From the NCBI GenBank assembly GCA_964413845.1, contig CAYPTJ010000008.1, positions 1 through 43,335 on the forward strand: DNA of 43,335 nucleotides, read 5' to 3'. Below the pieces are notes generated by a model. That model was not told the origin of the DNA and ran no database searches. It saw only the letters and a list, made by a program, of their open reading frames with translations. Source of the stretch: an uncultured Candidatus Saccharibacteria bacterium. GTDB lineage: Bacteria > Patescibacteriota > WWE3 > 9FT-COMBO-53-11. The first letter of the stretch is position 1; every line of letters begins with the position of its first letter. The position numbers were made by a program, and so were the translations under genes. Below, piece after piece: positions 1,184 through 17,646 of the stretch.

Positions 1184-1364
1184 TTTCGTTCCCTCCTTTC
1201 AGGGTTCAAATAACCACGAGTCCCTCGTGGTAGGGTTATCAGAGTACTACGATTCCGATACTATTTGCTATTATAGGATAAATCGGTTTGGAAGTCAAGA
1301 AGCGGTGGTGCCCCTGGCAGGATTCGAACCTACAATCTTCTCCTTATCCCGCCTTTGGCGGGAG

Positions 1365-1464
1365 TAAGGCGTTCGCTTCGCTCACACCCGTTTCCTTCGG
1401 AAATAAGGCGTTCGCTTCGCTCACACCCGTTTCCTTCGGAAATAAGGCGTTCGCTTCGCTCACA
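1365..1464. repeat. tandem repeat, 39-bp unit x ~2.6
   Basis: TAAGGCGTTCGCTTCGCTCACACCCGTTTCCTTCGGAAA at 1365 and 1404, plus a partial copy at 1443. Confidence 0.95.
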
Positions 1465-1495
1465 ACCTTGTCCGCCTCTGGCGGATAGTGATATC

Positions 1496-1571
1496 TGGTG
1501 CCTCCGGCAGGATTTGAACCTGCAATCTTCGCCTTAGAAGGGCGCTGCTCTATCCGTTGAGCTACGGAGGC
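1496..1571 (-). tRNA. tRNA-Arg(TCT), intact, nested inside the outer tRNA-Arg
   Basis: 76-nt cloverleaf, anticodon loop CT-TCT-AA, encoded CCA. Confidence 0.95.
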
Positions 1572-1602
1572 CTAACAGATATCGCGTCGAAGGGAGCTGC
1601 TC

Positions 1603-1622
1603 CCTGCCTGCCGGCAGGCAGG
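1603..1622. repeat. perfect 20-bp palindrome CCTGCCTGCCGGCAGGCAGG
   Basis: Self-reverse-complementary. Variants occur near 6702, 17763 and 27585. Confidence 0.9.
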
Positions 1623-1791
1623 TATCCATTAAGCTACAGGGGCATCCTCATCTATTTTCGAGCTCTGCGAGAAAACAAGCTCTATGCTTATTTTAACGCA
1701 GTTTTGGTAATTTGTGAATTCCTGCGGACGAGGCCCGCAGCATCTTCCATTTCGCTCGCCTGGCTCGTGAAATGTTAAACTGCTCTTGTCA

Positions 1792-3054
1792 ATGGAGTGG
1801 AGGTTGGAAGATCAGGCTTCACCTTATTTTACTTTAGAGCTGCAAACAGCAACCAAGAACGCTTTTCGTGGTGGCAAACCTTTGGGAAGCGCAGAGAAAG
1901 AAACGGCTGTACTTCTTGAGTCATTAATTGATACGGCGCTTTCCTTCAATGCTTCAGATATTCATTTCCAAAATCTTGGCGAGCTAAGAGCAGTTGTGAA
2001 GTTTCGAATCGATGGAGTATTAAGGTTGGTGGTTGAGTTGCCTCCAAACATCTCTGATGGCCTTATCTCAAGGCTTAAATACATTACCCATATGCGGCTT
2101 GGCAGTCCCCTCCCCCAAGATGGAAGGTTTGACGTTAAATACCAAGGCCAAGATGTTGTGATTCGTGTTTCGGTAATGCCAACCCGTCTTGGGGAGGATG
2201 CAACTCTAAGACTTTTAGCTGACATCGCCCGGCCAAAGTCCTTAAGAGATCTGGAGCTACGAAAGCGGGATTTAGAGGTTATCGAAAGAGCGCTCAAACA
2301 ACCTCATGGGATGATCTTAGTCTCAGGTCCAACCAGCTCGGGAAAAACAACCACCCTCTATCTTATGATCGAGCAGATAAACAAGGAAGAGGTTAACATC
2401 TGTACCATTGAAGATCCGATTGAATATGTTATTCCCGGGGTGAGGCAGATGCAAGTTGATTACGCTGCGGGATTAGATTTTGCCCTTGGTTTAAAGGCGA
2501 TTCTCCGCCATGACCCCAATATCATCTTTGTTGGCGAAATTCGCGATAGGGAGACGGTTGCAATCGCCGTTGACGCTGCCTTAACTGGTCAGCTCCTCCT
2601 TTCTTCTGTCCATGCCAACAGCGCCCCCGAAACAATTACAAGATTGAGGGATCTGGGAAGCAGGCCATACCTTATCGCTGCCACTTTAAGTGTTGTTGTC
2701 GGTAAGAGATTGGTACGAAGGATCTGCCCAAATTGCAGAACCAAAACGGAGCCCCACCGTGAAGATGTCGCTCTGGTTAAAGCAGAATACGGCATTGATA
2801 TAAGCAAGCTAAAGGTTTACGAGGGGAGGGGTTGTGAGGCTTGCCAAGGGTCGGGGCACAAGGGAAGGGTAGGTATCTTTGAGGTGTTTAAGGTCTCGGA
2901 GCCCATAAAGGAACTCATCTTGGCTAACGCTCCTGTGAGCAAGATTGTTGATCAAGCCAGAAAAGAAGGTTACACCTCTATGTTCGAAGACGGATTGGAA
3001 AAGGTTAAGGAGGGGATTATCTCTTTACCCAATCTTTTAGCGGCAACGGGTTAG
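1792..3054 (+). CDS. GspE/PilB-family secretion ATPase (short, lacks the N-terminal domain)
   Basis: ASDIH, RIDGVL, Walker A GPTSSGKTTT, TIEDPIEY, LRHDPNIIFVGEIRD and two CxxC motifs. Confidence 0.93.
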   Translation: MEWRLEDQASPYFTLELQTATKNAFRGGKPLGSAEKETAVLLESLIDTALSFNASDIHFQNLGELRAVVKFRIDGVLRLVVELPPNISDGLISRLKYITHMRLGSPLPQDGRFDVKYQGQDVVIRVSVMPTRLGEDATLRLLADIARPKSLRDLELRKRDLEVIERALKQPHGMILVSGPTSSGKTTTLYLMIEQINKEEVNICTIEDPIEYVIPGVRQMQVDYAAGLDFALGLKAILRHDPNIIFVGEIRDRETVAIAVDAALTGQLLLSSVHANSAPETITRLRDLGSRPYLIAATLSVVVGKRLVRRICPNCRTKTEPHREDVALVKAEYGIDISKLKVYEGRGCEACQGSGHKGRVGIFEVFKVSEPIKELILANAPVSKIVDQARKEGYTSMFEDGLEKVKEGIISLPNLLAATG

Positions 3055-3086
3055 GAGTTTACACCGATCCGCCCGAGGCGGAGAGG

Positions 3087-3160
3087 TGGAGCGGGATACG
3101 GGAGTCGAACCCGTCTCTTCAGCTTGGAAAGCTGACGTTGAGCCACTCAACTAATCCCGC
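3087..3160 (-). tRNA. tRNA-Gly(TCC)
   Basis: 74 nt, anticodon arm TCAGC-TT-TCC-AA-GCTGA, ends TCCA. Confidence 0.95.
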
Positions 3161-3218
3161 TCGCCTCTATTTTATCTCAATTATTTGGGAAAGAAAAGGT
3201 GCTTGAGTTGTGCAAGAG

Positions 3219-3794
3219 TTATGGATGGACAAGCTTAAGGAAAATTTTATATGCCGTTCGGGCATCACCCAGGGCACGGTGTTTCTTTCCTCCTTTAATA
3301 CTAAAATGCTCGGCCAGAGCTTGAAGTCGTAGTCTTTTGATCTTGGGATCGTTTAGGGCATAGGCATAAGCGATGGATAAAACATCAAGTCGATGGTAAT
3401 CAAAGGTCCAAGAGATACCGGCGTTTCGGTAAGCAATCTCCAAGAAAGTCCAGTCGAAGGTGATGTTGTGGCCAACCAGCATTGCTCCGGGTGCAAGCTT
3501 ATTTAACTCTTTAAGAACCTGAATTAGTGGCTTTGCTTTCTTCCAAGAGGTAGGAGAAAGACCAGAAAGTTTTAGCGCTTTTTTATCTGCCGTTTCGGGA
3601 TGCTCCGGCTTAACTCTTGTTTGGTATTCTTTTTCAATCTTTAAGGTTTTTCCGCTTACAAGGATGGCTCCTATCTCAATAATTTCATGGCGAGTTGGAT
3701 CAAGCCCTGTTGTTTCTAGGTCAATAAATAGGAGGTTCTGATTGCGGAAGTCGGTTGGAAGATTACTACCAGGGATCTTTCTTACTTGTGGCAT
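3219..3794 (-). CDS. DEDDh 3'-5' exonuclease (DnaQ-like)
   Basis: IDLETTG, GHNITFD and HRALGDA motifs. Confidence 0.9.
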   Translation of the reverse strand: MPQVRKIPGSNLPTDFRNQNLLFIDLETTGLDPTRHEIIEIGAILVSGKTLKIEKEYQTRVKPEHPETADKKALKLSGLSPTSWKKAKPLIQVLKELNKLAPGAMLVGHNITFDWTFLEIAYRNAGISWTFDYHRLDVLSIAYAYALNDPKIKRLRLQALAEHFSIKGGKKHRALGDARTAYKIFLKLVHP

Positions 3795-6397
3795 CAGTTT
3801 GAAATGATAGTCGGGGATCGCGGACTTGAACCGCGGACTTGAACCTCCGACTCGGCAAAAAACCTTTTCTTAACAAACTCTATTGCTCCAAAGTATGAGG
3901 TAAGCACGCAAACAATCCAAACCCATACCAAAGGGGGTAAGAGGGTAAACGCAAATAAGGAGTGGCCAATTTTCAAAAACGGTAATCCCACAACTGCAAG
4001 ACTGGAAAACACGCTCGCGGCAAGGAGCCACCTGCTGGGAGCACTTCTGTAAAACGGAAGGCGTGTCCGAATCGCAAAAGTTACGATCATTTCAGAAAGT
4101 GCAGATTCAACAAACCAAGCAGTACGAAAGACAGAAGGGTCAAGTTTCCAGAGGACAAGAAGGGGAAGGATCAAAGATAAATCAAAAAAGGAGCTAAGAA
4201 GTCCAAAGTAAACCATAAACCGTGCAATCATCTGAATATCCCAACGCCCCGGCTTTCTAATAAACCCCCGATCAACATTGTCGGTTACAATGGTCAATAA
4301 GGGAATATCGCTAATGAAGTTGTTAAGTAAAATTTGAGAGGGTAGCAAGGGGATAAAGCGTAAAAACAAAGAGGAAAGCATTACAGTAAACATATTCCCG
4401 TAATTGGCGCTAATGGTATTGAGAATGTATTTGGTAATGTTTCCAAATGTTTTCCTTCCTGTCTCAATCCCTTTGGCCAAAACTGTCAAATCTTTCTTAA
4501 GAAGGACAATGTCCGCGGCTTCTTTAGCGATCTCTGTACCTGTATCAACTGCAATTCCTACATCAGCCGCCTTTAGGGCAGGAGCGTCATTTACCCCGTC
4601 CCCCAAGAACCCAACGATGTGGCCCTCTTTGGTGAGGCTAACCACAATTTGGTGCTTTTGATCTGGAGTAACGCGGCCAAATAAGTTGTATCTTTTAACA
4701 ACTTCCTCAAATTCTCCCCTTTTTAACTTTGCCAAAATATCGCCTGTGATCACTTCCGAACCACTCGCTAGCAGACCAGTTTCTTTTGCTACCTTCTTTA
4801 CTACGGTGGGACTATCCCCACTTATGACCTTAATCCCCACACCTAGTCTCTCGAGAAACTGTAGGGACTCCATTGCCGTCTTTTTAACTGGATCACTAAA
4901 AAGTAAGTAACCTTCAAAGATTAAGTTTTCTTCTTGAGGGGTGGACTCTGCTGGCTGAAGTTTCCTTTTCGCTAAGGCCATAACACGGTAACCTGATTCC
5001 TCCATCTTCCTAACTTCATGAAGAATGCTTTCTCTGGTGAAGTTATCAATTCTTACTCTCCTCCCTTTCCTCATAACTTGAGTGCTAGCGTCCAGAACAC
5101 TCTCTGTTGCTCCCTTAACGATCATCCACGTATCCTCCTTGCTTCTCACAACCACACTATTTCTTTTTCGCACAGAGTCAAATTCGTTTCGTGCCACAAA
5201 GTGGCATTCCCTTACCTTTTCTTTTAACTTCGTGGCTTTTCTGCTCTCCCAGATCGCTATATCGATGGGGCTTGATGCCGCACCCCTTACTCTATCCTCA
5301 AACCAGCTTGAACAAAGAAGAGCATCAAGGAGAATTTCTTGGTTACTTTTGCCATCTAGATCTAAACTGTCAACCAAAGAAAAAATTCCCTCTGTTAGAA
5401 CCCCGGTTTTGTCGGTACACAGCGTATCAATGTTTCCAAGATCCTCAATTGATATCAAGCGCTTTACGACCACCTTTCTTTTCGCCATCCGCAGGGCTCC
5501 TTGTGACAAAGTAACCGTTGTGATCACTGGTAAAAGCTCTGGGGTAATCCCCACAGCTAAAGCTAAAGCAAACAAAAGCGAGGTAAGAATCCCTTTCCCC
5601 AAAATTGCGTTTGAGGAAAAAACAAATAACGCCATAATAAGAGTCACTCGGAACAGGAAGGCGCTAAATTTCCTTGTTTCCTTTTGGAAGTCAGAGGGAG
5701 GAGCTTTTTCTTCTAATATTTTTACTGTCTTTCCCAAAAAGGTTTGATCTCCTATAGCAGTCACTACCCCTTGCCCAATTCCCGCACTGACAAAGGTACC
5801 CATGAAAGCCATATTGGATAGCTTCTGTGGTTGGGTATACTCCTTGCTAACACTCCCACTTTTCTTAAGAACTGGAAATGATTCACCCGTTAATACTGCC
5901 TCATCTATCATTAAGCCATTACAGGAGAGCAGCCGAATATCTGCCGGAACGCGATTGCCGAGTTGAAGGGACACTATATCCCCGCCTACCAAATCCTGAC
6001 TATTAAGTCTGATCCAACGCCCATCTCTTAGGGCATGTGCTTTGTGGGTGATGTATTTTTTTAACTTTGCCAAGGCTTTTTCGGCTCGATATTCTTGGAA
6101 AAATCCAAGAAAGACACTCAGGATAACGAGGGAGAAGATCACCGCCGCATCAAGCCTTTCTCCTAGCAAATAAGAAATAGCCGTGGCCAAAAGAAGGGTA
6201 ATAATTAGCCAATTTTGAAACTGGAAGATGAGGACTGAAAGAACAGATCTTTGTTCTTTGCCTAAGACCTTATTTGGCCCGTGCTGTCGCAATCGTTCCT
6301 GCGCCTCAACACTTGACAGACCTGATGGTCTAGTAGAGAGATGCTTAAGGACTTCTTTTTCTGACAACGACCAGAGTGGCTTAATTTCCCTTAGCAC
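3794..6397 (-). CDS. mgtA: magnesium-translocating P-type ATPase
   Basis: TGES, AVGITPELLP, DKTGVLT, GDGVND. The SANYGNMF and LPSQILLNN segments fit the P3B (MgtA) subfamily. Confidence 0.85.
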   Translation of the reverse strand: MLREIKPLWSLSEKEVLKHLSTRPSGLSSVEAQERLRQHGPNKVLGKEQRSVLSVLIFQFQNWLIITLLLATAISYLLGERLDAAVIFSLVILSVFLGFFQEYRAEKALAKLKKYITHKAHALRDGRWIRLNSQDLVGGDIVSLQLGNRVPADIRLLSCNGLMIDEAVLTGESFPVLKKSGSVSKEYTQPQKLSNMAFMGTFVSAGIGQGVVTAIGDQTFLGKTVKILEEKAPPSDFQKETRKFSAFLFRVTLIMALFVFSSNAILGKGILTSLLFALALAVGITPELLPVITTVTLSQGALRMAKRKVVVKRLISIEDLGNIDTLCTDKTGVLTEGIFSLVDSLDLDGKSNQEILLDALLCSSWFEDRVRGAASSPIDIAIWESRKATKLKEKVRECHFVARNEFDSVRKRNSVVVRSKEDTWMIVKGATESVLDASTQVMRKGRRVRIDNFTRESILHEVRKMEESGYRVMALAKRKLQPAESTPQEENLIFEGYLLFSDPVKKTAMESLQFLERLGVGIKVISGDSPTVVKKVAKETGLLASGSEVITGDILAKLKRGEFEEVVKRYNLFGRVTPDQKHQIVVSLTKEGHIVGFLGDGVNDAPALKAADVGIAVDTGTEIAKEAADIVLLKKDLTVLAKGIETGRKTFGNITKYILNTISANYGNMFTVMLSSLFLRFIPLLPSQILLNNFISDIPLLTIVTDNVDRGFIRKPGRWDIQMIARFMVYFGLLSSFFDLSLILPLLVLWKLDPSVFRTAWFVESALSEMIVTFAIRTRLPFYRSAPSRWLLAASVFSSLAVVGLPFLKIGHSLFAFTLLPPLVWVWIVCVLTSYFGAIEFVKKRFFAESEVQVRGSSPRSPTIISN
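3810..3852 (-). repeat. att-like duplicate of the 3' half of the outer tRNA-Pro
   Basis: GTCGGGGATCGCGGACTTGAACCGCGGAC (3810-3838) equals 6450-6509 once the 31-bp insert 6469-6499 is removed. Confidence 0.85.
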
Positions 6398-6447
6398 TTT
6401 TTCACTCTTAATCTACACTAAAGCTCAAAAGGAATGGAGGTTATATC

Positions 6448-6748
6448 TGGTCGGGGATCGCGGACTTGTCATGCCAAAGGCAGATCCACCTTTGGTGGAA
6501 ACCGCGGACCTTCCGACTAAATTTTGGTCGGGGTGGAGGGAATTGAACCCACTACTTCTCGGTCCCAAACCGAGCGTTCTACCGATGAACTACACCCCGA
6601 CGAACGTTAGTGAGGCGGGATGCTAGGTTCGCCGCTAGGCGAGCCGTCCACCCCGGAATTGTTATAGGACTGCTCTTAGCCTCCGCCAAAGGCGGATCGC
6701 CCCTGCCTTGCCGGCAGGCAGGTCTGGTGGAAACTGAGCTAATCCCCG
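6448..6748 (-). pseudogene. interrupted outer tRNA-Pro-like gene; anticodon not reconstructable
   Basis: 5' CGGGGATTAGCTCAGTT..GGCTAAGAGCA and 3' GGAAGGTCCGCGGTT|CAAGTCCGCGATCCCCGACCA have complementary acceptor strands. Inserts lie in the D-loop (6682-6731), the T-loop (6469-6499) and the anticodon arm. Confidence 0.75.
6525..6599 (-). tRNA. tRNA-Pro(TGG), intact, nested
   Basis: 75 nt, anticodon arm CTCGG-TT-TGG-GA-CCGAG, CCA end. Confidence 0.95.
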
Positions 6749-6750
6749 TT

Positions 6751-6807
6751 TGCCCCACTGCGCCAAAGCTTCGAGGGGCATCCTTCCGAAGCTTTAGCGA
6801 AGGAGGA
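6751..6807. repeat. palindromic doublet repeat
   Basis: Reverse complement nearly matches 17723-17800, which carries an extra CCTG..CAGG palindrome. Confidence 0.85.
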
Positions 6808-6909
6808 TGGTGGGCGGAGAGGGATTTCCTTCGACCACGCTCAGGATAAACTTCTCATCCCTCCCAGCCATGGTGAGCCTGCCGAATCCATGGTGGGCGG
6901 AGAGGGATT
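6807..6909. mobile_element. miniature element flanked by a 20-bp duplication that includes the tRNA-Leu 3' end
   Basis: ATGGTGGGCGGAGAGGGATT at 6807 and 6890. The interior has TCCTTCGA..GCTCAGGAT and ATGGTGAGCCTGCCGAATCCA. Confidence 0.65.
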
Positions 6910-6977
6910 CGAACCCTCACGCTTTCAACAAGCACGAGATCTTAAGTCTCGCGTGTCTGCCATTTCACCACCCGCCC
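6891..6977 (-). tRNA. tRNA-Leu(TAA)
   Basis: 87 nt with long variable arm, anticodon arm CGAGA-CT-TAA-GA-TCTCG. Confidence 0.95.
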
Positions 6978-7000
6978 GCGGATCCAACGCTCCAGCAAAT

Positions 7001-7234
7001 CTATCTCACTTCCTTGACCTTTATCTCAAATTGCGGAAACAATCCCCGCAGTGCTTTTGTGATCCTTGCTCCTAAGCTAGGGAGTTCTGTTTTGATTTTC
7101 ACAACCAGCGCCTGCACCTCCTTGCTTGAAACCACCTCGCCAAGCTGTGCCGTACCCTTTTTAATCACCCCTGTCATCTCCAGCGGTGCCAAAACCAGCG
7201 CAAGAAGGATGGCTACCAGGATCAGCCGTCTCAT
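7001..7234 (-). CDS. small hypothetical protein with N-terminal signal/TM segment
   Basis: AAAGGAGG SD before ATG at 7234; begins MRRLILVAILLALVLAP. Confidence 0.6.
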   Translation of the reverse strand: MRRLILVAILLALVLAPLEMTGVIKKGTAQLGEVVSSKEVQALVVKIKTELPSLGARITKALRGLFPQFEIKVKEVR

Positions 7235-7269
7235 TTTTATTCCTCCTTTATATTTTATCACAGAGAAAT

Positions 7270-8331
7270 CTAACGTGAAAGACGAACGCCAACAAGTCGA
7301 ACCTCTCTTTTGCGGTTGAGAAATGGAAGAAGGAGCTTGAGGGCAATCTTTTTAAACTGTGCAAGCTCTGTTATTCCCCCCTTCGCTGTTTCGGCTTTGG
7401 TGTGAGTTTCAAAGTTTTGGTAACGGACGGTGACGGTAACCGTCTCAAACCTTAATTTACTGGCAATAACCTCCTCCCACACCTCAGAAGAAAGATCAAG
7501 AAGAGCTTTGGCGATAAGGTTGGGATCGGCAGTGTCTTTTTCGAAAGTGATCTGTTTTCCAACTGATTTTATCGGTTGTATCTCTCCAACTGGGGTATCA
7601 TCCTTGCCGCGTGCGAGGTCAGAAAGGATACTACCAAACGACCCAATAATCTCTCTTAATTCTTCTTTTGTTAACCTCCGCAGATCAGAAACTGTTTTTA
7701 TCTTTTTAGTATAGAAGCGTTGAGCTGTCTTTGGTCCAATTCCAGGAATCTCTTGGATATCCAAAGGAGCTAAAAAGGCAAGAACCACACCAGGGACAAC
7801 TACAGTTAATCCATCCGGTTTGCTTTGCCCAGAGGCGATTTTAGCGACAAGCTTATTGGGTCCAATACCAACTGTTGCGGTGAGTTTCTGTTTTTCTCTA
7901 ATTAGTTTTTTTAGCTTAACTGCCAGATCAGCGGCTTTGCGGTAGGATCCCAGATGGGAGAGGTCTAGGAAGAACTCATCAGTACTTGCTTGCTCAACTA
8001 AAGGAACCTCCAAATGAAGGAGGCTAAGAATCTCCTGTGAAACACGATGATATTTTTCGATATCCGGTTGAAGAAAGATCGCCTGAGGAGCAAGGTGATA
8101 AGCTTGGGAGATTGGCATTGCACTTTTTATCCCAAATTTTCTTGCCTCATAATTGGCAGTTGAGACCACTCCTCGCCCGGTAGGGCGAAGCTCGCCCCCT
8201 TCGGGGGCGGCCCTCACCTTAGGATCGGCTCCAACCACAATCGGTTTTCCTGAAAACTGAGGATTGTCCCGCTCTTCAATTGCCGCATAAAAAGCATCCA
8301 TATCAAGGTGGGCAACGATTCGGTTTACCAT
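7270..8331 (-). CDS. dinB: DNA polymerase IV (Y family)
   Basis: HLDMDAFYAAIE, STANYEARKFG, STDEFFLD, NKLVAKIAS, KPDG. Confidence 0.95.
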   Translation of the reverse strand: MVNRIVAHLDMDAFYAAIEERDNPQFSGKPIVVGADPKVRAAPEGGELRPTGRGVVSTANYEARKFGIKSAMPISQAYHLAPQAIFLQPDIEKYHRVSQEILSLLHLEVPLVEQASTDEFFLDLSHLGSYRKAADLAVKLKKLIREKQKLTATVGIGPNKLVAKIASGQSKPDGLTVVVPGVVLAFLAPLDIQEIPGIGPKTAQRFYTKKIKTVSDLRRLTKEELREIIGSFGSILSDLARGKDDTPVGEIQPIKSVGKQITFEKDTADPNLIAKALLDLSSEVWEEVIASKLRFETVTVTVRYQNFETHTKAETAKGGITELAQFKKIALKLLLPFLNRKREVRLVGVRLSR

Positions 8332-8367
8332 CCTTTTAAGTCTATCAGGTGTGTTAGGATAACTTCT

Positions 8368-9276
8368 GTGTTTGTTAAGGTTTCGGCGATTATTCCTGTT
8401 TTCAACGAAGAGAAGACAGTTGCTAAAGTGATGGAGACACTTTTGCGATCTCCTTTGATTGGGGAGGTGATTTGTATCAATGACGCCTCAACCGACAAAA
8501 GCTATCAAATCCTCAAAAAGTTTGGGAGAAAAATAAAACTTCTCAATTTTGAGAAAAATAGAGGGAAGGGAGCGGCGCTAGCAGAGGGGGTAAGGGCTGC
8601 CAAAGGGGAGATTGTCGCCTTCTTTGATGCTGATCTTGTAACGCTTACTCCTGGGCATGTCGGAGATCTTATAAAACCCCTCATTCGCAAACAAGCAAGA
8701 GTGACGTTGGGTTATTCCAATAAGGATACTCCCGTTGAAAGGATCAAAGATCTTAAAATTTCAATGTTTGGCAGCGCCTTCACTTTCCAAATCGGCCACA
8801 AGTTCCCCTATCTTGTTTCCCAAAGCTTAACCGGCGAGCGTGCATTTTTAAGGAAGGATCTCCTTCCTTATCTTAACCGGTTGGAGAAGCTAAGATTTGG
8901 GGTTGAGGTCTTCTTTAACAATCACTTTAAAGATGTAGCAGGGGTGGTTTTGCCTAATCTTTGCCAAGTCTCAAAATTTGAGAAGTTTTCCCTTCGTGAG
9001 GCAGTTCGGGAATACATCAAAGAGGGGGTGGAGATTGCTCAGGAGATTGGGAGACAAGAGAAAGCCCGCTGGCAAGATCTTAGGCTTCTGGAAAAGCTTA
9101 TCGAGACGGAAATTGATATTCCTCCTGATGAAATCATAGATTTTAGTCCGTTGCAAAAAAGGATCAATGAGATTCGCAATAAACGGATGCGAAAATTCCT
9201 TAAGGAGTATTTCGTGAAATATCTTAACCGATTTACCTCCCGTCTTGCGACCTTCAAAGATAAACTGAAAGTTTAG
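8368..9276 (+). CDS. glycosyltransferase family 2
   Basis: IIPVFNEE, INDASTD, NRGKGAA, FFDAD. GTG start at 8368 chosen to avoid overlap with dinB. Confidence 0.88.
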   Translation: MFVKVSAIIPVFNEEKTVAKVMETLLRSPLIGEVICINDASTDKSYQILKKFGRKIKLLNFEKNRGKGAALAEGVRAAKGEIVAFFDADLVTLTPGHVGDLIKPLIRKQARVTLGYSNKDTPVERIKDLKISMFGSAFTFQIGHKFPYLVSQSLTGERAFLRKDLLPYLNRLEKLRFGVEVFFNNHFKDVAGVVLPNLCQVSKFEKFSLREAVREYIKEGVEIAQEIGRQEKARWQDLRLLEKLIETEIDIPPDEIIDFSPLQKRINEIRNKRMRKFLKEYFVKYLNRFTSRLATFKDKLKV

Positions 9277-9350
9277 TGGCTGGGAGGCTTGGATTCGAAC
9301 CAAGATTTCCAGATCCAAATTCTGGCGTGCTACCGTTACACCACCCCCCA
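9277..9350 (-). tRNA. tRNA-Gln(TTG)
   Basis: 74 nt, U1-A72, anticodon arm CCAGA-AT-TTG-GA-TCTGG, ends GCCA. Confidence 0.95.
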
Positions 9351-9356
9351 TTAAAG

Positions 9357-9605: not shown

Positions 9606-9606
9606 A

Positions 9607-9678
9607 CGCTGTCCTATCCGCCCCGCCTTTAGGCGGGCGAGATCTCGCCCGAAGGGCGGACCGTTAGACGACCCGGCA
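9607..9678 (-). pseudogene. orphan tRNA 5' half (Gln-like) with a 44-bp D-loop palindrome insert
   Basis: TGCCGGGTCGTCTAACGG|TAGGACAGCG after removing 9617-9660; D-stem GTCT/GGAC. No matching 3' half was seen. Confidence 0.6.
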
Positions 9679-9786: not shown

Positions 9787-10230
9787 CTATTTGACTTCGA
9801 TAGATTCGCCAAGTTCCGCGCCGCACGCTTTGATAATAGGACTGTTGTTTGAGCCAATTTTTACGCTGTACCTGGTTTCGGCAGCACTTCCGGTTGATGG
9901 ATCTTGGGGGATGGAAGCAAGGTACTTAGCCAACGGTGTTGAAAGATCAGCACAAGCCGCTACTGTTCCGCAATCGTCGCATCCGCTTGCTGCGGTACCA
10001 AGTTGCGTCTCCGACATCCCAGAGCTAAGACCGGTCGGAAGAGCCCCACCGTTATCAACAATGTATTCATTAATTGCGGTCCGGACGCTGTTGACGTCGT
10101 TCCAACGCCGAGCGTTTCGCGCTTGGGCAAACCTTGTCACTGGATCAAGAGCGACAAAAATAACCGCCGCCAAAATGGCGATGATCACGATAACAACGAG
10201 AAGCTCAATTAAAGTAAATCCTTTTCGCAA
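9787..10230 (-). CDS. type IV major pilin-like protein
   Basis: KGFTLIELLVVIVIIAILA prepilin motif. Confidence 0.92.
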   Translation of the reverse strand: MRKGFTLIELLVVIVIIAILAAVIFVALDPVTRFAQARNARRWNDVNSVRTAINEYIVDNGGALPTGLSSGMSETQLGTAASGCDDCGTVAACADLSTPLAKYLASIPQDPSTGSAAETRYSVKIGSNNSPIIKACGAELGESIEVK

Positions 10231-10292
10231 ATTCTTTCACCCCCTTTCGGATTAGAGAACATTCTTATTTGAGCAAAATATTAGATCGGGAG

Positions 10293-11216
10293 TCAAGTCT
10301 TGATCAGATTGAGCGGTTGCTCCTGCCCGCTCAAAAGTGCTAATCCCAAAACATTAACAAAGGTTACTTTTGATAAATCTCCAAAATTAACTTTAATTGG
10401 AAGTTTGAAGGTTTTAAACACTTCTTCTGCTGAAATTACACTTACCTTTAATTTAGATTCAAATTCAGCAGGTTTAGCGGTCAAACTCCCCCCTCCACCG
10501 AGAATCACCTGTTTGATACATCCTCCTATCTGCGTGCAGGCAAAGGCAAACAGATTTTCTATTTGGGCGAAAAGTTTATCAGTTTGGACTGGCTCGGAAA
10601 AGGTTTCCACAACCCCTTGCTGATCCATTAAGGTCGCGGTAGTAATCTTTTCTCCCACATCAAGGTAAAGAACAGCTCCCCCTGCTTTTATCAAAGGACT
10701 AAGAAAGCTATAGGCGGCAACCGATTCCGGAACGGCAAGTTTGGGCTCAAGGCCAAGATCGTTGAAAAGCTCTATATAACCGTTGATGATCACAGTTGGG
10801 ACCGCCGCTAGAAGAATCTCTCCTTCTTCTTTTCCTTCCTTCTTTTGACCAAGAATAAGATAGTTGTAAGTTAATTCTTCTATTGGCTGGGGAATTAGTT
10901 TCTCTGCTTGAGATTTAATCAGACTAAAAACAGTTTGGCTGTCGTGCTTTTGAGAAAGCGCAAAGCGGTGGGTGTAAACGCGTTTGTCAGGGAGGGTAAA
11001 GGCACATTCCCTATCTTTCATTGGCTTGGGTTTTGCGTTTTTTAGAAGATCAACGACGATCTTTTTTAGGGCATTTTTGTCTTTAATCTCCCCTTCCTCT
11101 ATTGGGCCATTTTTAAATTCGCTACGGTTGAAAGCTGTCACCGCCTCTCCAGTAAGAAAACTCTTGGAGAGGCGAATCGCCTCAATTGATGTATCGGAGA
11201 TATCGAAGAAAAGCAT
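10293..11216 (-). CDS. pilM: PilM-like pilus assembly protein
   Basis: FDISDTSIE start, actin-like ILGGGGS motif, operon context. Confidence 0.7.
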   Translation of the reverse strand: MLFFDISDTSIEAIRLSKSFLTGEAVTAFNRSEFKNGPIEEGEIKDKNALKKIVVDLLKNAKPKPMKDRECAFTLPDKRVYTHRFALSQKHDSQTVFSLIKSQAEKLIPQPIEELTYNYLILGQKKEGKEEGEILLAAVPTVIINGYIELFNDLGLEPKLAVPESVAAYSFLSPLIKAGGAVLYLDVGEKITTATLMDQQGVVETFSEPVQTDKLFAQIENLFAFACTQIGGCIKQVILGGGGSLTAKPAEFESKLKVSVISAEEVFKTFKLPIKVNFGDLSKVTFVNVLGLALLSGQEQPLNLIKT

Positions 11217-11226
11217 TTGGTTTTTT

Positions 11227-11312
11227 GGTTGTTCGGTTGTCTGGTTGTTTGGTTATTGAAGACCGAATCACTAGATCACCGAATAACCGAACCACTAAAC
11301 CACCAGACAACT
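11227..11312. repeat. degenerate 8-mer tandem repeats
   Basis: GGTTGTTC/GGTTGTCT/GGTTGTTT followed by ACCGAATC/ACCGAATA-like units. Confidence 0.7.
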
Positions 11313-11736
11313 ACTCCACCTCTTTCCAACTAAGAATGCTGATTTCATTTCCACGGTTTATTTTAACTTCAATCTTCTTCGTATGTCCAGAAGCGGTAGC
11401 GGTTGTGGTTATTGTCCAGTTATTGCCATCTTTCGCCACCCCAACTACACAAGAGCCCTCCGGATAATTTTCTGTTCCTCCCGTGTAGCTTCCATCATAG
11501 TATGAGGAAAGAAGGGCATCCTCGGCACAACCCTCAGCAAGGGCAAGGGCGAAGTGCCCACGCTTTTCGGCAAGCCCCATCTGGGCTTCGGAGACTCCCA
11601 GAATCGCAAGGGTAACACCGATAACTAAAACCACCGCCGAAATAATCAGAAAACTAACAAGGGCGATATACCCCCGCTTCGCGGGAGTAATTGAGCTATT
11701 GAGTAATTGAGTTATTGAGTAACTTACACTTCGCAT
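11311..11736 (-). CDS. PilX/GspK-like minor pilin
   Basis: RGYIALVSFLII, AEGCAEDAL and C-terminal SWKEV. Confidence 0.75.
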   Translation of the reverse strand: MRSVSYSITQLLNSSITPAKRGYIALVSFLIISAVVLVIGVTLAILGVSEAQMGLAEKRGHFALALAEGCAEDALLSSYYDGSYTGGTENYPEGSCVVGVAKDGNNWTITTTATASGHTKKIEVKINRGNEISILSWKEVE

Positions 11737-11778
11737 TTTTTACTCCTAAATCCTAATTACTACTTACTTAATTACTAG

Positions 11779-12387
11779 TTACTTTCTAATTTGCACACTT
11801 GTTTCAAAACTTGCCTCCTTCGCCCATTCTGATCTTCCTGACGGATTCCGGTGGCGAACAGTGAGGATAAACTGCACCACTTCGGAGTTTTCATCGGTAA
11901 GGTTAGTGAAAGTGAGGTTAGTTACCTCAACCAAGCGGCCTGTTAGGGCGATCCAACTTCCCACCCCTCGCTTAAGTTGTAAAGCTCCTTGGTCTATTCG
12001 GAATTCCGCTGGATAGTAAGGGGCAGGCCCGGCAAGCGAGAGCTTTGCCCCTGGATTGGGGGCTAAATTAATTCCAAAGTTTGACTCAGCTGTATTAATA
12101 TTTACTGCGTTTCTAACCTCAACTTGGACCTTATGGCTCGCGAAACGAAGGTTTTCTTGAACCTCCTGATGAACCCCCGCCTTAACATTGCCCAAAACCA
12201 CATCCCAGGCGAAATAAACCGTCGCTGTCAAAAAAATGGCAACTAATCCCATATAGAGGAGAAGTTCGATTAATGTAAAGCCCTTCGCTCCGCTCAGGAA
12301 CTTTGTCCGCCTCTGGCGGATGAAGCCGTTTGGTTGTTTAGTATAACCAAATAACCGAATAACCGAATAACCGTTAACCAATTTCAT
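11779..12387 (-). CDS. prepilin-type minor pilin (PilW-like)
   Basis: KGFTLIELLLY motif; long leader that includes repeats. Confidence 0.85.
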   Translation of the reverse strand: MKLVNGYSVIRLFGYTKQPNGFIRQRRTKFLSGAKGFTLIELLLYMGLVAIFLTATVYFAWDVVLGNVKAGVHQEVQENLRFASHKVQVEVRNAVNINTAESNFGINLAPNPGAKLSLAGPAPYYPAEFRIDQGALQLKRGVGSWIALTGRLVEVTNLTFTNLTDENSEVVQFILTVRHRNPSGRSEWAKEASFETSVQIRK

Positions 12388-13877
12388 GGTTGAACAACTT
12401 GAAACTCGGCGTCGTCATCAGCGGTGACAAAAAACGCCACACACTTATCTTCCAGCAGGGAAACCCCGCCAGCATCACCGTTCAGGTCAGCAGAAAAGAC
12501 CTTGCTGGGGCTTGACGGATTAGAGAGGTCAAGAATCATAAATTCTTCATCGTCTTTTTGAGTTGCCAAAAGGGCAAACCCTACTCCTGCTCCAACATTG
12601 TTTGCCCGATCACTCACATCATACGATCCAATAAGACTGATATTTGCCGGATCAGCAACGGCAAGAAGATAAAACTCCGGGATAGCACCAACATTATCCC
12701 TGGTAACAAGATAAGCTACACCCGCTCTTATGATATCTACCGCCTGTCCAGGTGCTCCAGCGCTAGGAATATTGTAAGCACCAAGCTCTTGCGGTGCTTG
12801 AGGATTTGAGGCATCAACGATAATCAACTCCTTATCAGACCTAGCGTTGGCAAGGTAGGCACGTTGATCCTTGACGGTAATGCCGTAGACATGGTTGCCA
12901 ACCTCCAAACTTCCAACCAATGCTGGAGAAGGAGGATTGCTTATATCAAAGATGTAGAGTTCAGGACCGTTGGTTGCTGCTTGGGTAACGACATAGGCGT
13001 AATTTCCTTCCACGGAAACATCGTTCGCCTGGCTAGTCTCTGGAATATCAAAAGAAGAAACTTTAGTGGGGGAGGAGGGGTTGCTGACATTAACAACAAT
13101 CAACTCCTCATCCACCTTAGAGGTGGTGAGGAAGGCATAATTTCCAGAAACAGCCAGATCGTTGACATGATCACCTATCCTGAGTTTCCCCAAAACAGTG
13201 GGGGAAAGAGGGTTGGTGATATCAAGAATGAAGAACTCGCCTGAGGTAACTGCGTTGCGCATTGTGGTAACGTAAGCGCGGTCTTCAACCACCAAAACAG
13301 CTGTCCCATCACCTGTACCGGGAAGATCGAGGGTGGCCACCACTTGTCCCGAATCCCAAACACAAAGCGCTGATTCCCAGTAGGTAAAGTAGGTCGGGAG
13401 TCGAACAGTATTATGGCGGGTGGGGGTAAAATCCCAGGTTACCACTGCCTCAACCCTTTTAGTATAAAGATCCAAGATCCCGCCGCTTGTAACAATATTG
13501 CCGCTTGCGTCACGGTAAATGTTGGAGATGACGATCTTTCGAGTGTATTTCCCAAAGGTGTTTTGGGTACCAGAAAGCTCCCACTTTCCAGTTGAACTAT
13601 CTAAGCCATGCGTCCCTGCTACCAAAGCCCAAAAGTCTCTCTCTTGGATTGCTCTTACTGCCTCCAATCCCTCACTTGCTAAAAAAGTTGCTTTTGTTTC
13701 CTCCTCCCCTAACCTTGTTGAGGAAAACGCTTGGATCACCACCCCCGCTGCTCCTCCAGCAATAATCGTGAAAAGCCCCATCGCCAAAACTATTTCCAGT
13801 ACAGAAAAACCTCTTTTATTTTTGAGCCTGCGAGAAAACAAGGTTCTTGAGCGTAGCGAAAGGTTCTTATTGAACAT
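12384..13877 (-). CDS. minor pilin fused to an LVIVD-repeat beta-propeller
   Basis: RGFSVLEIVLA, then repeated 'GNYAY..ELxIxDISNPxSP' units. Confidence 0.85.
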   Translation of the reverse strand: MFNKNLSLRSRTLFSRRLKNKRGFSVLEIVLAMGLFTIIAGGAAGVVIQAFSSTRLGEEETKATFLASEGLEAVRAIQERDFWALVAGTHGLDSSTGKWELSGTQNTFGKYTRKIVISNIYRDASGNIVTSGGILDLYTKRVEAVVTWDFTPTRHNTVRLPTYFTYWESALCVWDSGQVVATLDLPGTGDGTAVLVVEDRAYVTTMRNAVTSGEFFILDITNPLSPTVLGKLRIGDHVNDLAVSGNYAFLTTSKVDEELIVVNVSNPSSPTKVSSFDIPETSQANDVSVEGNYAYVVTQAATNGPELYIFDISNPPSPALVGSLEVGNHVYGITVKDQRAYLANARSDKELIIVDASNPQAPQELGAYNIPSAGAPGQAVDIIRAGVAYLVTRDNVGAIPEFYLLAVADPANISLIGSYDVSDRANNVGAGVGFALLATQKDDEEFMILDLSNPSSPSKVFSADLNGDAGGVSLLEDKCVAFFVTADDDAEFQVVQP

Positions 13878-14304
13878 CGATTGCACCTTCCGTATTGATG
13901 GTAACTGTTTTTTGCTCACCGAGGGAGGAAAGAGTAATCGTCAGTGTCCCTGAAGGTTCTCCGCGCCCTTTTTGGAAAGAAACATCGGCAAAACCGTTTA
14001 TGTTTACCATTTGAGGGAGATTGAATTTTTCGTCAAAGGAAGAATCACGAGTAACGTAACTTCCTCCTTTAAAAAGAACTAAAAGCTCAGGTTCACAGTG
14101 TACTCCCCAAACAGAATTCTCCTTCCCGTTAAGACTGTAGGCTTGGGCTTTCCGCAAGGTCCTCACTATCTTGTCGTTGGTAGTTGTTAGGTACCCTCCG
14201 GCTAAAAATTGACTTAAGTAGGGAGTTGATGTGGCACCGATAATCCCAATAATCCCAATCACGATCAGAAGTTCAATTAGTGTGAAACCTTGTTTATTAG
14301 TCAT
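13867..14304 (-). CDS. FimT/GspH-like minor pilin
   Basis: QGFTLIELLIVIG motif. Confidence 0.88.
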   Translation of the reverse strand: MTNKQGFTLIELLIVIGIIGIIGATSTPYLSQFLAGGYLTTTNDKIVRTLRKAQAYSLNGKENSVWGVHCEPELLVLFKGGSYVTRDSSFDEKFNLPQMVNINGFADVSFQKGRGEPSGTLTITLSSLGEQKTVTINTEGAIDVQ

Positions 14305-14326
14305 TAGAAATTAGACATTAGGCATT

Positions 14327-15451
14327 TCACCGTATGCTCCCCGTAATCTGGTAAATGGGGGTGATGATGGAAAGAGCGATAAAAGCAACAACGCCGCCGA
14401 TGAAAAGAAGGAGAAGCGGTTCTAAGAGAGTGGTCATGTTTTTAGTAGTGCTTTCAACCTCCGCCTCGAAATACTCGCCTAAATAGACCAGATTCTCCTC
14501 AAGGTTTCCACTTTTCTCTCCCACCCCAATCATTCTTGAAACAAAGGGGGGAAATTCGGGGTAATTTCCGTCCCGGAGAGCCTTCTCAATGCTTTTACCT
14601 TTCCTGACCTCATTGGCGATCTTCTCAAGATCATGCTTGTAAACGGTGTTTCCTTCGGTTACAGCTGCGGTTGCTAAGGCGGCGGTGATCGGCAGCCCAC
14701 TGCGAAGCATTATCCCTAAATTCCGGCTTAAGGTGGCTATGGCGACGCATCTGAAAAAATAACCAAAGATAGGAAGTTTAAGAAGAAGGCTGTCACGCCA
14801 AGGCTTAATCAGGCGTGAACGAAGGATAAAGACGAAAGTGGCAAGAAGGAGACCTAGTCCTGGAATAGCAATGTATCCTTGATTCCGAAGAACTTTTGAG
14901 AAAAAAATAAGCAGCTTTGTTGTTGGTGGAAGGGCAATGTCTAAGCCCTCAAACAGTTCAGTGATCTGGGGGAGAACAAAGAAAGCTAAGGCAAACCCAA
15001 TCACCCCTGTGACCGTTAGAATCAAGGACGGATAAAGCATCGCCGATTGGACCGTCTTTCGAAGATCATTCTCCTTCTCCAGCTGCTCCGTCAGGTATTC
15101 TAAGCTCCCCTCAAGTGTTCCGGACTCTTCCCCAACTCTAACAAGGCTAAGGTAGAAGAGATCGAAGATCTTGGGGTGTTTGGAGAAAGCCTTCTCCAGA
15201 CTCTGACCTTTTGAGATATCCTCATATACCTCCTGAAGAATCCTCTTAAATGCATGGCTTTTGGCTTGAACAGTAAGTGTCTCTAGGACATCGGCAATTG
15301 GGACTCCGCTTTTAAGCATCACCGCTAGATGCTTCGTAAAAAACATCTTCTCGCTGAAAGAAATTCGATCAAACATTTTATTTTTGAGCTTGCGAAAAAA
15401 CAAGCTCTGCTTATTCTCGAGCTTGTGAGAGAACAAGCTCTGCTTACTCAC
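14327..15451 (-). CDS. pilC: type II secretion F / PilC platform protein
   Basis: LAVMLKSGVP, VGEESGTLE, AMLYP, VGEKSGNLE, LLEP. Confidence 0.93.
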   Translation of the reverse strand: MSKQSLFSHKLENKQSLFFRKLKNKMFDRISFSEKMFFTKHLAVMLKSGVPIADVLETLTVQAKSHAFKRILQEVYEDISKGQSLEKAFSKHPKIFDLFYLSLVRVGEESGTLEGSLEYLTEQLEKENDLRKTVQSAMLYPSLILTVTGVIGFALAFFVLPQITELFEGLDIALPPTTKLLIFFSKVLRNQGYIAIPGLGLLLATFVFILRSRLIKPWRDSLLLKLPIFGYFFRCVAIATLSRNLGIMLRSGLPITAALATAAVTEGNTVYKHDLEKIANEVRKGKSIEKALRDGNYPEFPPFVSRMIGVGEKSGNLEENLVYLGEYFEAEVESTTKNMTTLLEPLLLLFIGGVVAFIALSIITPIYQITGSIR

Positions 15452-17139
15452 TATTCTTTTGTTGCTCTTAAGATTTCTTCAATGGTCGTGGTTCCTTTTA
15501 CCACCTTTTTTAATCCATTCTCCAACATTGTTGTCATCCCTTTTTCAACCGCCATTCTCTGAACTGCCTCGGCATCTTTCCGTTCAATAATTGCCTGCCT
15601 AATATCATCATCTACAAGGAGAACCTCGTGAATTCCAATCCGATCGGCGTATCCAGTTTGCTGGCACAAAGGACATCCCTGGGCAGTCCAGATTGTAACC
15701 TTTTCCCCCTTACCAAGATATCTTTCAACCGCATCTTTAGGAAGGTGTTCTTTTATGTTTGCCGCTGGCACTTGCTCTTTCTTTCGGCAGTTTTGACAAA
15801 GCATCCTCACCAGCCGCTGGGCGATAATCACATTTACAGTTGAGGCGACCAAGAATGGTTCAACTCCCATATCTAGAAGTCGGATGATAGAGGTTGCAGC
15901 ATCATTCGCGTGCATGGTGGAAAGAAGGAGATGTCCAGTCATTGCGGCATTCACCGCAATATTTGCTGTCTCTGGGTCTCGGATTTCTCCAACAAGAATA
16001 ATGTCCGGGTCTTGTCGCACAATTGAGCGCAACCCCTGGGCGAAAGTAAGGTTTGTTTTGGGATTAACTTGAATTTGGTTAACCTCCTCCATATCATATT
16101 CCACTGGATCTTCAATCGTGGTGATGTTTACATCTCTTTTGTTTAAGACCTTTAAAACCGCATACATTGTGGTTGTTTTCCCAGATCCCGTTGGTCCAGT
16201 TGCCAGAATCATTCCGTAGGGCTTGTCGTAAGCCCACCTTATCTTCTTTAGATCTCCCTCCTCAAAACCCATGTCCTCAAATGAAAGTTGCCGCACTCGG
16301 GCGGAAAGAAGTCGCAAGACTACTTTTTCCCCATGGGTTGTAGGCATTACTGAGACGCGAACATCAAGTTTTGTTTGCTGCTCTTTTGGCAAACCCACTC
16401 CCGTGCGAAAGATTAACTTTCCATCCTGAGCAGCTTGGTGCTCATCGGTGCGAAGGTTCGCCATCACCTTGATGCGGGTGATAATCTCCGGATGGATCTC
16501 TTTAGGAAGAGTGGCGACATCATGGAGAATTCCATCAATCCGATATCTAATAAGCGATTCTTCTTCTTTGGGCTCGATATGAACATCGGAAGCGCGATTT
16601 TGGTCACCATAAGAAAGCATCAAATCCACAATCTTTATGATTGGAACCTCAGCTGGTTGGCCTTTTGTTAAAAAAGCGCTTTCTTCGATGAGCTTGGCAA
16701 ACTCTTTCTGGATATCTTTCTGATAGCGGCGAAAAACCCCTTTAATATCCTTGGGGGTTGCGTAGTGAGGAATTACCTCATCGCCAGTTTTCTTCCTGAT
16801 AAACTCAATCGTTTCCAAGTTTTCTGGATTGGCAAGAGCAACTTTTAACCCCTCCTTTCCGCGAGAAAAAGCAATCGCCATCCGACTGCGCGCGGTCATC
16901 TCTGGAATAATGTTGAGAATCTCCTTGGAGATGGTGATTTTTCTAAGCTGGACAAATGGTGTGCCAAAATGCTTGGCGACAAGAGCACCTAGTTTTTCAT
17001 CAGAGGTGAGATTTTTTTCCAAAATTAGTCGGTAGAGGGTTGTTTTTCTACTTTGGGCTTCTTTCGCCAACTCGGAAAGCTGTTTTTCACTAACGAGCTT
17101 GTTTTTAAGAAGAATTGGGGACAGGATTTTATCTTCCAT
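15451..17139 (-). CDS. pilB: type IV pilus assembly ATPase PilB/GspE
   Basis: ASDVHIEP, GPTGSGKTTT, RQDPDIILVGEIRD, two CxxC motifs, N-terminal extension. Confidence 0.95.
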   Translation of the reverse strand: MEDKILSPILLKNKLVSEKQLSELAKEAQSRKTTLYRLILEKNLTSDEKLGALVAKHFGTPFVQLRKITISKEILNIIPEMTARSRMAIAFSRGKEGLKVALANPENLETIEFIRKKTGDEVIPHYATPKDIKGVFRRYQKDIQKEFAKLIEESAFLTKGQPAEVPIIKIVDLMLSYGDQNRASDVHIEPKEEESLIRYRIDGILHDVATLPKEIHPEIITRIKVMANLRTDEHQAAQDGKLIFRTGVGLPKEQQTKLDVRVSVMPTTHGEKVVLRLLSARVRQLSFEDMGFEEGDLKKIRWAYDKPYGMILATGPTGSGKTTTMYAVLKVLNKRDVNITTIEDPVEYDMEEVNQIQVNPKTNLTFAQGLRSIVRQDPDIILVGEIRDPETANIAVNAAMTGHLLLSTMHANDAATSIIRLLDMGVEPFLVASTVNVIIAQRLVRMLCQNCRKKEQVPAANIKEHLPKDAVERYLGKGEKVTIWTAQGCPLCQQTGYADRIGIHEVLLVDDDIRQAIIERKDAEAVQRMAVEKGMTTMLENGLKKVVKGTTTIEEILRATKE

Positions 17140-17201
17140 TTAAGCATAAGTTTAACAAAATGATGTGCTTTAGGGTATGGTAAAATAATATTAAACATTT
17201 T

Positions 17202-17290
17202 GGGCGAGTGGTGGAATGGTAGACACGCAGTCTTCAGAAGGCTGTCCCTGCAAAACGGGGGTGGAGGTTCAAATCCTCTCTCGCCCACCA
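17202..17290 (+). tRNA. tRNA-Leu(CAG)
   Basis: Anticodon arm CAGTC-TT-CAG-AA-GGCTG, long variable arm, CCA. Confidence 0.93.
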
Positions 17291-17342
17291 CCTCGCTAAC
17301 GCTCGGTGTAAACTCCTAGCTTGCCCTGAGCGTAGCGAATGG

Positions 17343-17430
17343 GGGCGGATGGCGGAATTGGTATACGCGATAGGTTGAGGACCTATGCTCCGAAAGGGGC
17401 TTGAGGGTTCAAGTCCCTCTCCGCCCACCA
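17343..17430 (+). tRNA. tRNA-Leu(GAG)
   Basis: Anticodon arm ATAGG-TT-GAG-GA-CCTAT, long variable arm, CCA. Confidence 0.95.
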
Positions 17431-17466
17431 TGGGCGATTAGCTCAACGGTAAGAGCGCTTCGTTTA

Positions 17467-17596
17467 TCCCACACCGAAGCAAAGCTTAGTGCGGGAGTAG
17501 CGACGAGGGTCTGTAGCTCAGCGGCAAGAGCGTTCGGCTTACATCCGAAAGGTCCCTGGTTCGAATCCAGGCAGGCCCACCAGACCTCGTCGCGTC
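17467..17596. mobile_element. 130-bp anticodon insert carrying a complete tRNA-Val(TAC)
   Basis: Begins TCCCAC..GCGGGAGTA and ends TCGCGTC; inverted repeat GCGACGAGG/CCTCGTCGC surrounds the cargo. Confidence 0.7.
17507..17582 (+). tRNA. tRNA-Val(TAC), intact, nested
   Basis: 76 nt, anticodon arm TTCGG-CT-TAC-AT-CCGAA, CCA. Confidence 0.95.
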
Positions 17597-17646
17597 CATC
17601 GAAGAGGTTGGGGGTTCAAATCCTCCATCGCCCACCATTAAACTTC

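Follow-up and report, generated by a model that had tools for sequence, protein, structure and literature searches.

The question raised by this locus is how an intact tRNA gene comes to lie within another gene for the same tRNA. The locus belongs to an uncultured Candidatus Saccharibacteria bacterium (contig CAYPTJ010000008.1, assembly GCA_964413845.1), and the window, that is the whole stretch of 43,335 nt analyzed here, carries three nests in which a broken tRNA gene (the host) encloses a complete one (the cargo). A first-pass annotation had described them as tRNA-Arg, tRNA-Pro and tRNA-Val genes broken in the anticodon arm by a co-oriented tRNA gene for the same amino acid. The Val and Arg hosts were indeed split exactly between positions 35 and 36 around a co-oriented tRNA with the same anticodon, while the Pro host was nested but wrecked (Table 1). 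We conclude that a phylum-wide and apparently undescribed architecture of tRNA-replacing insertion is real; the enzyme proposed for it is hypothetical. The source genome of the window (G000) is a 610-kb assembly of 54 contigs, 92% complete, with 43 tRNAs by ARAGORN. The tRNAs of the window were called with ARAGORN and Rfam.

Rejoining the two Val halves yielded a 76-nt tRNA-Val(tac) in ARAGORN. The rejoined Arg host measured 96 nt and was called Arg(tct), at 76 nt, only once a second palindrome, of 20 nt and located in the D-loop (1603-1622), had also been removed, a step omitted from the first-pass annotation. The inverted repeat attributed to each cargo was a perfect 9 bp for Val and 10 bp with one mismatch for Arg, but merely about 5 bp for Pro. 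The Pro host (6448-6748) contained palindromes in both its D- and T-loops, its anticodon arm could not be rebuilt, and its ends were unlike those of Arg and Val. The duplicate of its 3' end located 2.6 kb downstream retains an unbroken T-loop, the state preceding the T-loop insertion, and demonstrates that the host was originally intact. The Arg and Val inserts shared their plus-strand ends, as had been claimed, and their polarity with respect to the host is therefore opposite in the two cases.

Two of the nests were bridged by separately assembled contigs. The Val nest was spanned by a piece of X11 (16679-17747, 1 difference) and the Pro nest by pieces of X10 (3131-6797, 0 differences) and X12 (5586-6797), but none of the pieces listed from these contig sets bridged the Arg nest. 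None of the runs that yielded the bridging contigs is marked as a possible source of the genome; they have year and habitat in common and possibly belong to one campaign. No empty-site joint for the three window nests was present among those listed in the four contig sets, and contigs drop rare variants.

Further nests were detected elsewhere in G000. Contig C7 (144-346) carried a Leu(TAG) gene within a Leu(TAG) gene, again split at 35/36, whose joined halves gave an 85-nt Leu(tag) in ARAGORN, and contig C3 carried Pro(GGG) within a damaged Pro gene. Inspected by eye, other tRNA genes were preceded by a collapsed 5' remnant or followed by a second copy of their 3' end. One common hairpin family had 15 of its 58 copies at most 300 nt from a tRNA, a zone covering no more than 4.6% of the genome. 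At the clean junctions of Val, Arg and Leu the exons ended in A, C and A and the inserts in C, A and C, respectively. TTA preceded all three junctions, but it was rejected as a fixed target since it failed in the wider set described below. In intron mode, ARAGORN miscalled the Leu nest as a tRNA-Asp with a 116-nt intron, a warning that nested tRNAs can yield false annotations.

Comparison of orthologous loci revealed empty sites. In the relatives G007 and G008, an uninterrupted Val(TAC) gene directly followed Leu(GAG) and showed 71/75 and 70/75 identity, respectively, to the rebuilt host of the window. The same Val gene contained different inserts in G003, G004 and G006, and in G002 it held a hairpin and a cargo of related type, with other arms, and the host had decayed.

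The search was extended to 134 genomes of the class, 401 genomes of the phylum (373 of the genomes were non-class) and named records, using a pattern in which a tRNA end is closely followed by an orphan T-arm and CCA. A strict filter retained those matches in which the orphan 3' end paired with the acceptor strand of a 5' remnant. The pattern matched 25 of the 134 class genomes and none of the controls, indicating that nesting is not due to chance, and 46 of the 401 phylum genomes (control, 2). Distinct sets passing the filter numbered 18 of 27 in the class, 23 of 45 in the phylum and 16 of 75 in the named records, altogether 57 cargo and remnant sets with a pairing 5' half and 19 anticodons, a few of which were false by eye. 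The strict sets L111, L122 and L055 proved false by inspection, and the true nests L036, L040 and L042 were missed. By hand count, no fewer than 18 of the 373 non-class genomes of the same phylum (Patescibacteria-type) contained a nest. This number is a floor, because only one of at least five nests in G000 was detected by the pattern. The figures for all prokaryotes refer to the matches listed. Among these, 14 of 17 flagged matches were true nests by eye, and true nests occurred in 12 of 22 records titled as Patescibacteria groups compared with 2 of 98 others (titles unconfirmed). Some nests of the same phylum were identical to those in Patescibacteria-titled records, and the name given to the phylum is based on this identity.

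The isotype of each host was assigned as that of the nearest intact tRNA to its remnants, with all cargos excluded, because automated closing of the host anticodon stems succeeded in only 15 of 57 sets; this classifier was right for 227 of 255 intact tRNAs. Host and cargo isotypes agreed in 46 of 55 nests (permutation mean 9.7, maximum 20), and the cargo amino acid ranked second in seven of the nine misses. The 3' remnants agreed with the cargo at positions 33, 34, 35, 36, 37 and 38 in 8, 17, 22, 31, 35 and 39 of 53 cases, and the 5' remnants at positions 34, 35 and 36 in 25, 16 and 5 of 32. The break was therefore centered on 35/36 plus or minus 1, with base 35 often lost. Hosts frequently lacked base 35 or the anticodon arm, or carried insertions in the D- or T-loop. 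A flanking stem score of at least 8 was reached by 41 of 56 nests and by 12 of 164 plain tRNAs. Of these 41 nests, 24 had CCA or the first tRNA bases at the inner end of the stem, which hints at fold-back copying of the right arm from the CCA end of the cargo. The cargo was mostly a different allele, the last 28 nt being identical to those of the host in 2 of 55 nests. Anticodons with C34 were frequent (Val CAC 5, Ala CGC 5, Thr CGT 4 and Arg CCG 3 of 57). Such tRNAs are often dispensable in other bacteria, and their abundance hints at, without proving, guidance of the insertion by homology.

The ends of the inserts were diverse. Many consisted of the arms of common CCCG...CGGG-type palindromes touching both junctions, others of a GA(C)-stem-TA unit with a second hairpin. 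The first-pass annotation had proposed a single family marked by TCCC-hairpin...TCGCGTC ends. This mark was rejected, since the ends vary among units and in most other units the palindrome arms lie directly on both sides of the cargo. The constant features are the inverted repeat flanking the cargo and the break at 35/36 plus or minus 1.

At some loci two 3' remnants were found, and nests were up to three layers deep. Both L047 and L048 had an inner 5' start that paired at 7/7 positions with the first 3' end and at 4/7 with the second. Layers paired inside-out in these two loci and in L234, as expected if each new unit strikes the currently intact inner gene. Three Val(TAC) alleles occupied different layers in the related genomes of L046-L048, which suggests cyclic replacement of these alleles. 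A form resembling an att duplication was displayed by L053-L055, in which one or two identical 3' halves, beginning at position 36, lay after Val(TAC), with short hairpin spacers and the same break point.

The first-pass claim of a DNA-level insertion supplying a whole replacement tRNA is supported by the empty sites, the phylum-wide isotype match, the decayed hosts, the layered nests and the lack of intron hallmarks. Taken alone, insertion of DNA with rescue by a whole gene is highly probable. The unit would be a non-coding palindromic repeat of about 110-240 nt whose loop contains a whole tRNA gene, and its point of entry would be the anticodon loop (35/36) of the gene already resident for that tRNA. 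The resident gene would then be destroyed, decay and gather more palindromes, the cargo would take over from the same promoter, and only co-oriented products with the same anticodon would persist. The new gene would be open to further hits, hence the nests of several layers. Of this model, the data establish the architecture, the empty sites, the insertion position, the isotype match, the decay of the hosts and the layering. The cut is most likely structure-directed and patched with DNA bearing a homologous tRNA gene, and it may be made in trans by small single-domain GIY-YIG nucleases travelling in cassettes of their own. The hairpin-forming donor may be single-stranded DNA from transformation, finding its target via tRNA homology, and the right arm may often derive from fold-back copying at the CCA end of the cargo. 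G000 has ComEC, and two genes for PilB/PilT-type ATPases are located within the window. We lean slightly towards the full model, in which insertion and rescue are combined with the GIY-YIG nucleases as predicted cutters. Rather more tentatively, and falling somewhat short of probable, the units may form a minimal cleave-and-rescue family in which a GIY-YIG nuclease cuts the anticodon loop, the tRNA sequence of the cargo acts as both target guide and antidote, alleles cycle and the smallest units encode only a tRNA.

The GIY-YIG nucleases appear to be the likeliest cutters because single-domain genes of this type sit in analogous cassettes consisting of a broken tRNA and a replacement. Among the eight PF01541 matches in G000, two were UvrC-like and six were single-domain proteins of 78-91 aa, and all six single-domain genes were located at most 130 nt from a co-oriented tRNA. 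Inspected by eye, the Gln, Ile and Asp cassettes had an old 5' remnant on one side of the nuclease gene and a full tRNA on the other; in the Asp cassette the old 3' end followed, giving an autonomous-looking nest. The Glu and Trp cassettes had a duplicated tRNA 3' end after the nuclease gene. In C53:22646-22970 (Asp) and C22:7419-7831 (Ile) the nuclease frame ran into the 5' end of the tRNA downstream and stopped there, and an older 5' remnant lay upstream; a tRNA-Ile at C22:7419-7493 bears a TAT anticodon. In the relatives, 94 single-domain open reading frames (ORFs) from 89 loci in the upper part of the match list were surveyed. A tRNA was found within 200 nt of 60 of the 94, co-oriented in all 60. 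A matching upstream 5' remnant accompanied 18 of the 36 ORFs with a downstream tRNA (control 0), and a matching 3' remnant was found for 6 of 24 ORFs (control 0). The nearest-neighbor nuclease had the same tRNA type in 24 of 58 cases (permutation mean 5.4), a figure inflated by kinship. The closest solved structures to the GIY-YIG protein of the window were UPF0213 and SLX1, and ESM Atlas and NCBIfam gave generic GIY-YIG labels only.

Several observations weigh against the full model. The nuclease cassettes favored Gln, Pro, Ser, Asn and Cys, whereas the nests favored Val, Thr, Ala, Ile and Arg. G004 had two nests but was not matched by the nuclease query; G010, G014, G018 and G024, on the other hand, had 6-10 nuclease matches without any pattern match. 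A nuclease cassette with both remnants was found by script in 0 of 36 cases. The hint of fold-back copying is itself inflated, CCA being complementary to the frequent TGG start. The perfect Val and Leu hosts, together with the RtcB ligase, leave room for splicing. Mobilization by GIY-YIG nucleases, as the first-pass annotation envisaged, is plausible and fits the related cassettes but neither the preferred tRNA types nor the genome-by-genome distribution, and the case for these nucleases as cutters of the nest hosts, predicted from sequence, is circumstantial.

The same insertion and rescue could have another agent, either a Y1/HUH transposase (IS200- or RAYT-like) acting on hairpins or hairpin-induced breaks followed by host repair, with the GIY-YIG genes being a parallel parasite of the same sites. 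This is doubtful. G000 had four Y1_Tnp matches, nest and GIY-YIG counts were not correlated across genomes, and the same hairpins also occurred without cargo in D- and T-loops. Most insertions lacked a target duplication, and HUH elements likewise insert without one. However, just one of the four Y1 matches lay near a tRNA (276 nt). IS200/IS605, PATE and REP/RAYT elements have conserved ends and a fixed tetra- or pentanucleotide target, whereas the ends of the nest units were not conserved and the bases before the break changed with the anticodon. It is improbable that the inserts are shrunken prophages or islands, integrated into the anticodon loop with a whole tRNA gene and then reduced by deletion between palindromes. 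About half of the tRNA-targeting islands (tyrosine integrase; Islander) use the anticodon site, and like the nests they insert into tRNA genes and leave a working gene behind (PMC4383910). Their crossovers fall in the anticodon loop, in the T-loop or at the junction, which agrees with the break at 35/36 plus or minus 1, and att-like 3' duplicates were common in these genomes. Unlike the islands of that study, the nests combine a length of about 0.1-0.25 kb and no integrase with a whole divergent gene inside an inverted repeat and two dead host halves (PMC4383910). Islands restore the target with a near-identical fragment and displace one fragment, but here both halves were displaced and the cargo was a whole divergent allele (58/76 for Val). 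The inserts were uniformly small and too short to code, their arms abutted both junctions, and the two matches to the tyrosine integrase family (PF00589) in G000 were not on the contig of the window. A viral source was not apparent either: among the 119 viral matches listed, six were flagged and none was, by eye, an inverted-repeat-bracketed nest of the same type, and a narrower pattern gave 0 matches in viral sequences. Two successive att-type events were rejected by inference, since they leave the complementary arms and the perfectly paired divergent acceptor stem unexplained.

A non-canonical intron, excised by an unknown endonuclease and RtcB so that each locus gives two tRNAs, is quite improbable, although the Val and Leu hosts rebuild perfectly, the Val precursor RNA can adopt a predicted fold that keeps both cloverleaves largely formed and RtcB is present in G000. 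The many hosts damaged in base 35, the anticodon arm or the D- and T-loops argue against it, as does the reversed polarity of the inserts between Arg and Val. Splicing endonucleases of the archaeal/eukaryal type (PF01974) had no match in the 92%-complete G000, the control being positive in four archaea. No group I intron was matched by Rfam in the inserts, and the U/G rule was not obeyed, since the exons do not end in U nor the inserts in G. Group I introns occur at 35/36 of tRNA-Asn and tRNA-Asp in Patescibacteria, a point not found in the literature searched; they share phylum and position with the nest inserts, but the latter lack the catalytic core. A tRNA within a tRNA intron has been proposed once, in Lak phages (PMC6784885). 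Chimeric assembly of tRNA genes from co-occurring strains would be in line with the fragmented 54-contig assembly and with the Arg nest being bridged by no listed contig. It is nonetheless extremely improbable, as separate contigs span Val and Pro, dozens of genomes show the same plan in different sequences, and inverted repeats are not produced by chimeras.

Insertion with whole-gene rescue was further compared with known systems. In the features tested as definitive of islands, introns, HUH elements and Ssn/SRM, the nest units differ from these systems. The Ssn GIY-YIG nucleases with their SRM/NTS hairpin repeats resemble the nest system in small genes, hairpins, a link to transformation and an insertion sequence-like layout (PMC11893778), and the G000 proteins, with PF01541 and 78-91 aa, correspond to their single-domain size of about 80-95 aa. 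The main text of that paper has 0 mentions of tRNA (PMC11893778). Membership of Ssn/SRM, a system in which SRM repeats are enriched and flank the nuclease gene, was rejected because the SRM motif was not enriched in G000 (1 match, compared with 1-6 in five shuffles). Ssn nucleases are further characterized by the CDD clade cd10448 and by cutting ssDNA at specific sites. Free-standing homing endonucleases cut alleles that lack the nuclease gene and spare their own. The layout of the nuclease cassettes fits free-standing homing endonucleases such as phage SegB, a GIY-YIG enzyme that likewise sits with tRNA genes and cuts within them (PMC13096335). SegB is a phage enzyme and acts with homologous recombination and amplification; neither palindrome-borne cargo tRNAs nor nesting is described in the portion of the paper available (PMC13096335). 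GTAG/CGTC-tagged REP repeats (PMC3733652) and Rickettsia palindromic elements are also short, tagged hairpins that insert into genes, but in the available text no tRNA cargo or anticodon-loop targeting is described for REP repeats, and the tag and arms of the nests vary. The tRNA-Thr intron of a Lak phage with a possible tRNA inside also places a tRNA in a tRNA gene; it concerns one phage and was read as an intron, and its main text states neither isotype match nor inverted repeats (PMC6784885). A viral contig of 311 kb (L391) resembles that case: the anticodon loop of a Gly-like tRNA directly contains a tRNA called Ile(AAT), and there is no inverted repeat, making it a nest of another type. 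The Lak phage intron was the sole printed parallel; the nest architecture was not found described in the literature covered, mostly outside subscription journals and in part excerpts. The accessible text of bioRxiv 10.64898/2026.10.13.758758 gave no description of it, and that of PMC7162821 no mention of 'intron'.

If insertion with rescue is correct, the nests would represent a novel type of mobile DNA, very small in size, which attacks essential single-copy genes and survives via a whole-gene cargo. It would be a natural counterpart of engineered cleave-and-rescue drives. It would also account for the abundance in Patescibacteria of tRNA fragments and of GIY-YIG genes adjacent to tRNAs, provide a candidate substrate for a large uncharacterised group of nucleases and imply sideways swapping of tRNA alleles.

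Table 1. Nested tRNA genes, nuclease cassettes and related remnants in the window.
Feature	Position	Strand	Remarks
Arg host, tRNA-Arg(TCT) 5' half (1-35)	1589-1643	-	20-nt D-loop palindrome 1603-1622
Arg insert, 242 nt	1347-1588	-	arms 1576-1585 and 1488-1497 bracket cargo; two hairpins, at 1471-1485 and at 1347-1363; 39-nt tandem repeat in three copies, 1359-1475
Arg cargo, tRNA-Arg(TCT), intact	1496-1571	-	66/76 identity to rebuilt host
Arg host, 3' half (36-76)	1306-1346	-	
Copy of Pro host 3' end	3815-3833	-	T-loop unbroken; 2.6 kb downstream of host
Pro host, 3' remnant	6448-6515	-	T-loop disrupted by palindromes; without anticodon arm
Pro cargo, tRNA-Pro(TGG), intact	6525-6599	-	ARAGORN and Rfam
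Second, collapsed Pro remnant	6616-6655	-	acceptor-like strands flanking GACG-hairpin-TAGC unit; read by eye
Pro host, 5' remnant	6672-6748	-	D-loop disrupted by palindromes (about 6682-6730)
Intact tRNA-Gln(TTG)	9277-9350	-	presumed replacement in nuclease cassette
Single-domain GIY-YIG nuclease gene, 82 aa	9357-9605	-	between Gln remnant and intact Gln gene
Older tRNA-Gln 5' remnant	9607-9678	-	D-loop disrupted by palindromes
Val host, tRNA-Val(TAC) 5' half (1-35)	17432-17466	+	halves rejoined by script
Val insert, 130 nt	17467-17596	+	hairpin 17467-17496; arms 17500-17508 and 17585-17593 bracket cargo
Val cargo, tRNA-Val(TAC), intact	17507-17582	+	ARAGORN and Rfam; identity to host only 58/76
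Val host, 3' half (36-76)	17597-17637	+	
Second cassette type	33019-33513	+	intact tRNA-Glu 33019-33093; GIY-YIG gene 33140-33421; tRNA 3'-end duplicate 33497-33513

Some minor observations concern the neighborhood of these features. A P-type ATPase gene is located between the 3' end of the Pro host and its duplicate (3794-6447), resembling an island-like insertion without an integrase. A small hairpin-rich insert past tRNA-Leu(TAA) (6808-6890) includes a second copy, 19 nt long, of the 3' end of that tRNA. On contig C3 of G000 (54340-54392), an orphan tRNA-Asn 3' half starting near position 36 follows a structured tract ending in G, which we take to resemble a group I intron tail; RF00028 gave no match there and no 5' half was seen. 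Differences between runs clustered at 10100-10183 and 12408-12531, in the region of the pilus genes. In all four runs the summed contig depth was very high at 13836-13870 and loose ends were numerous; the segment is probably a repeat common to other organisms.

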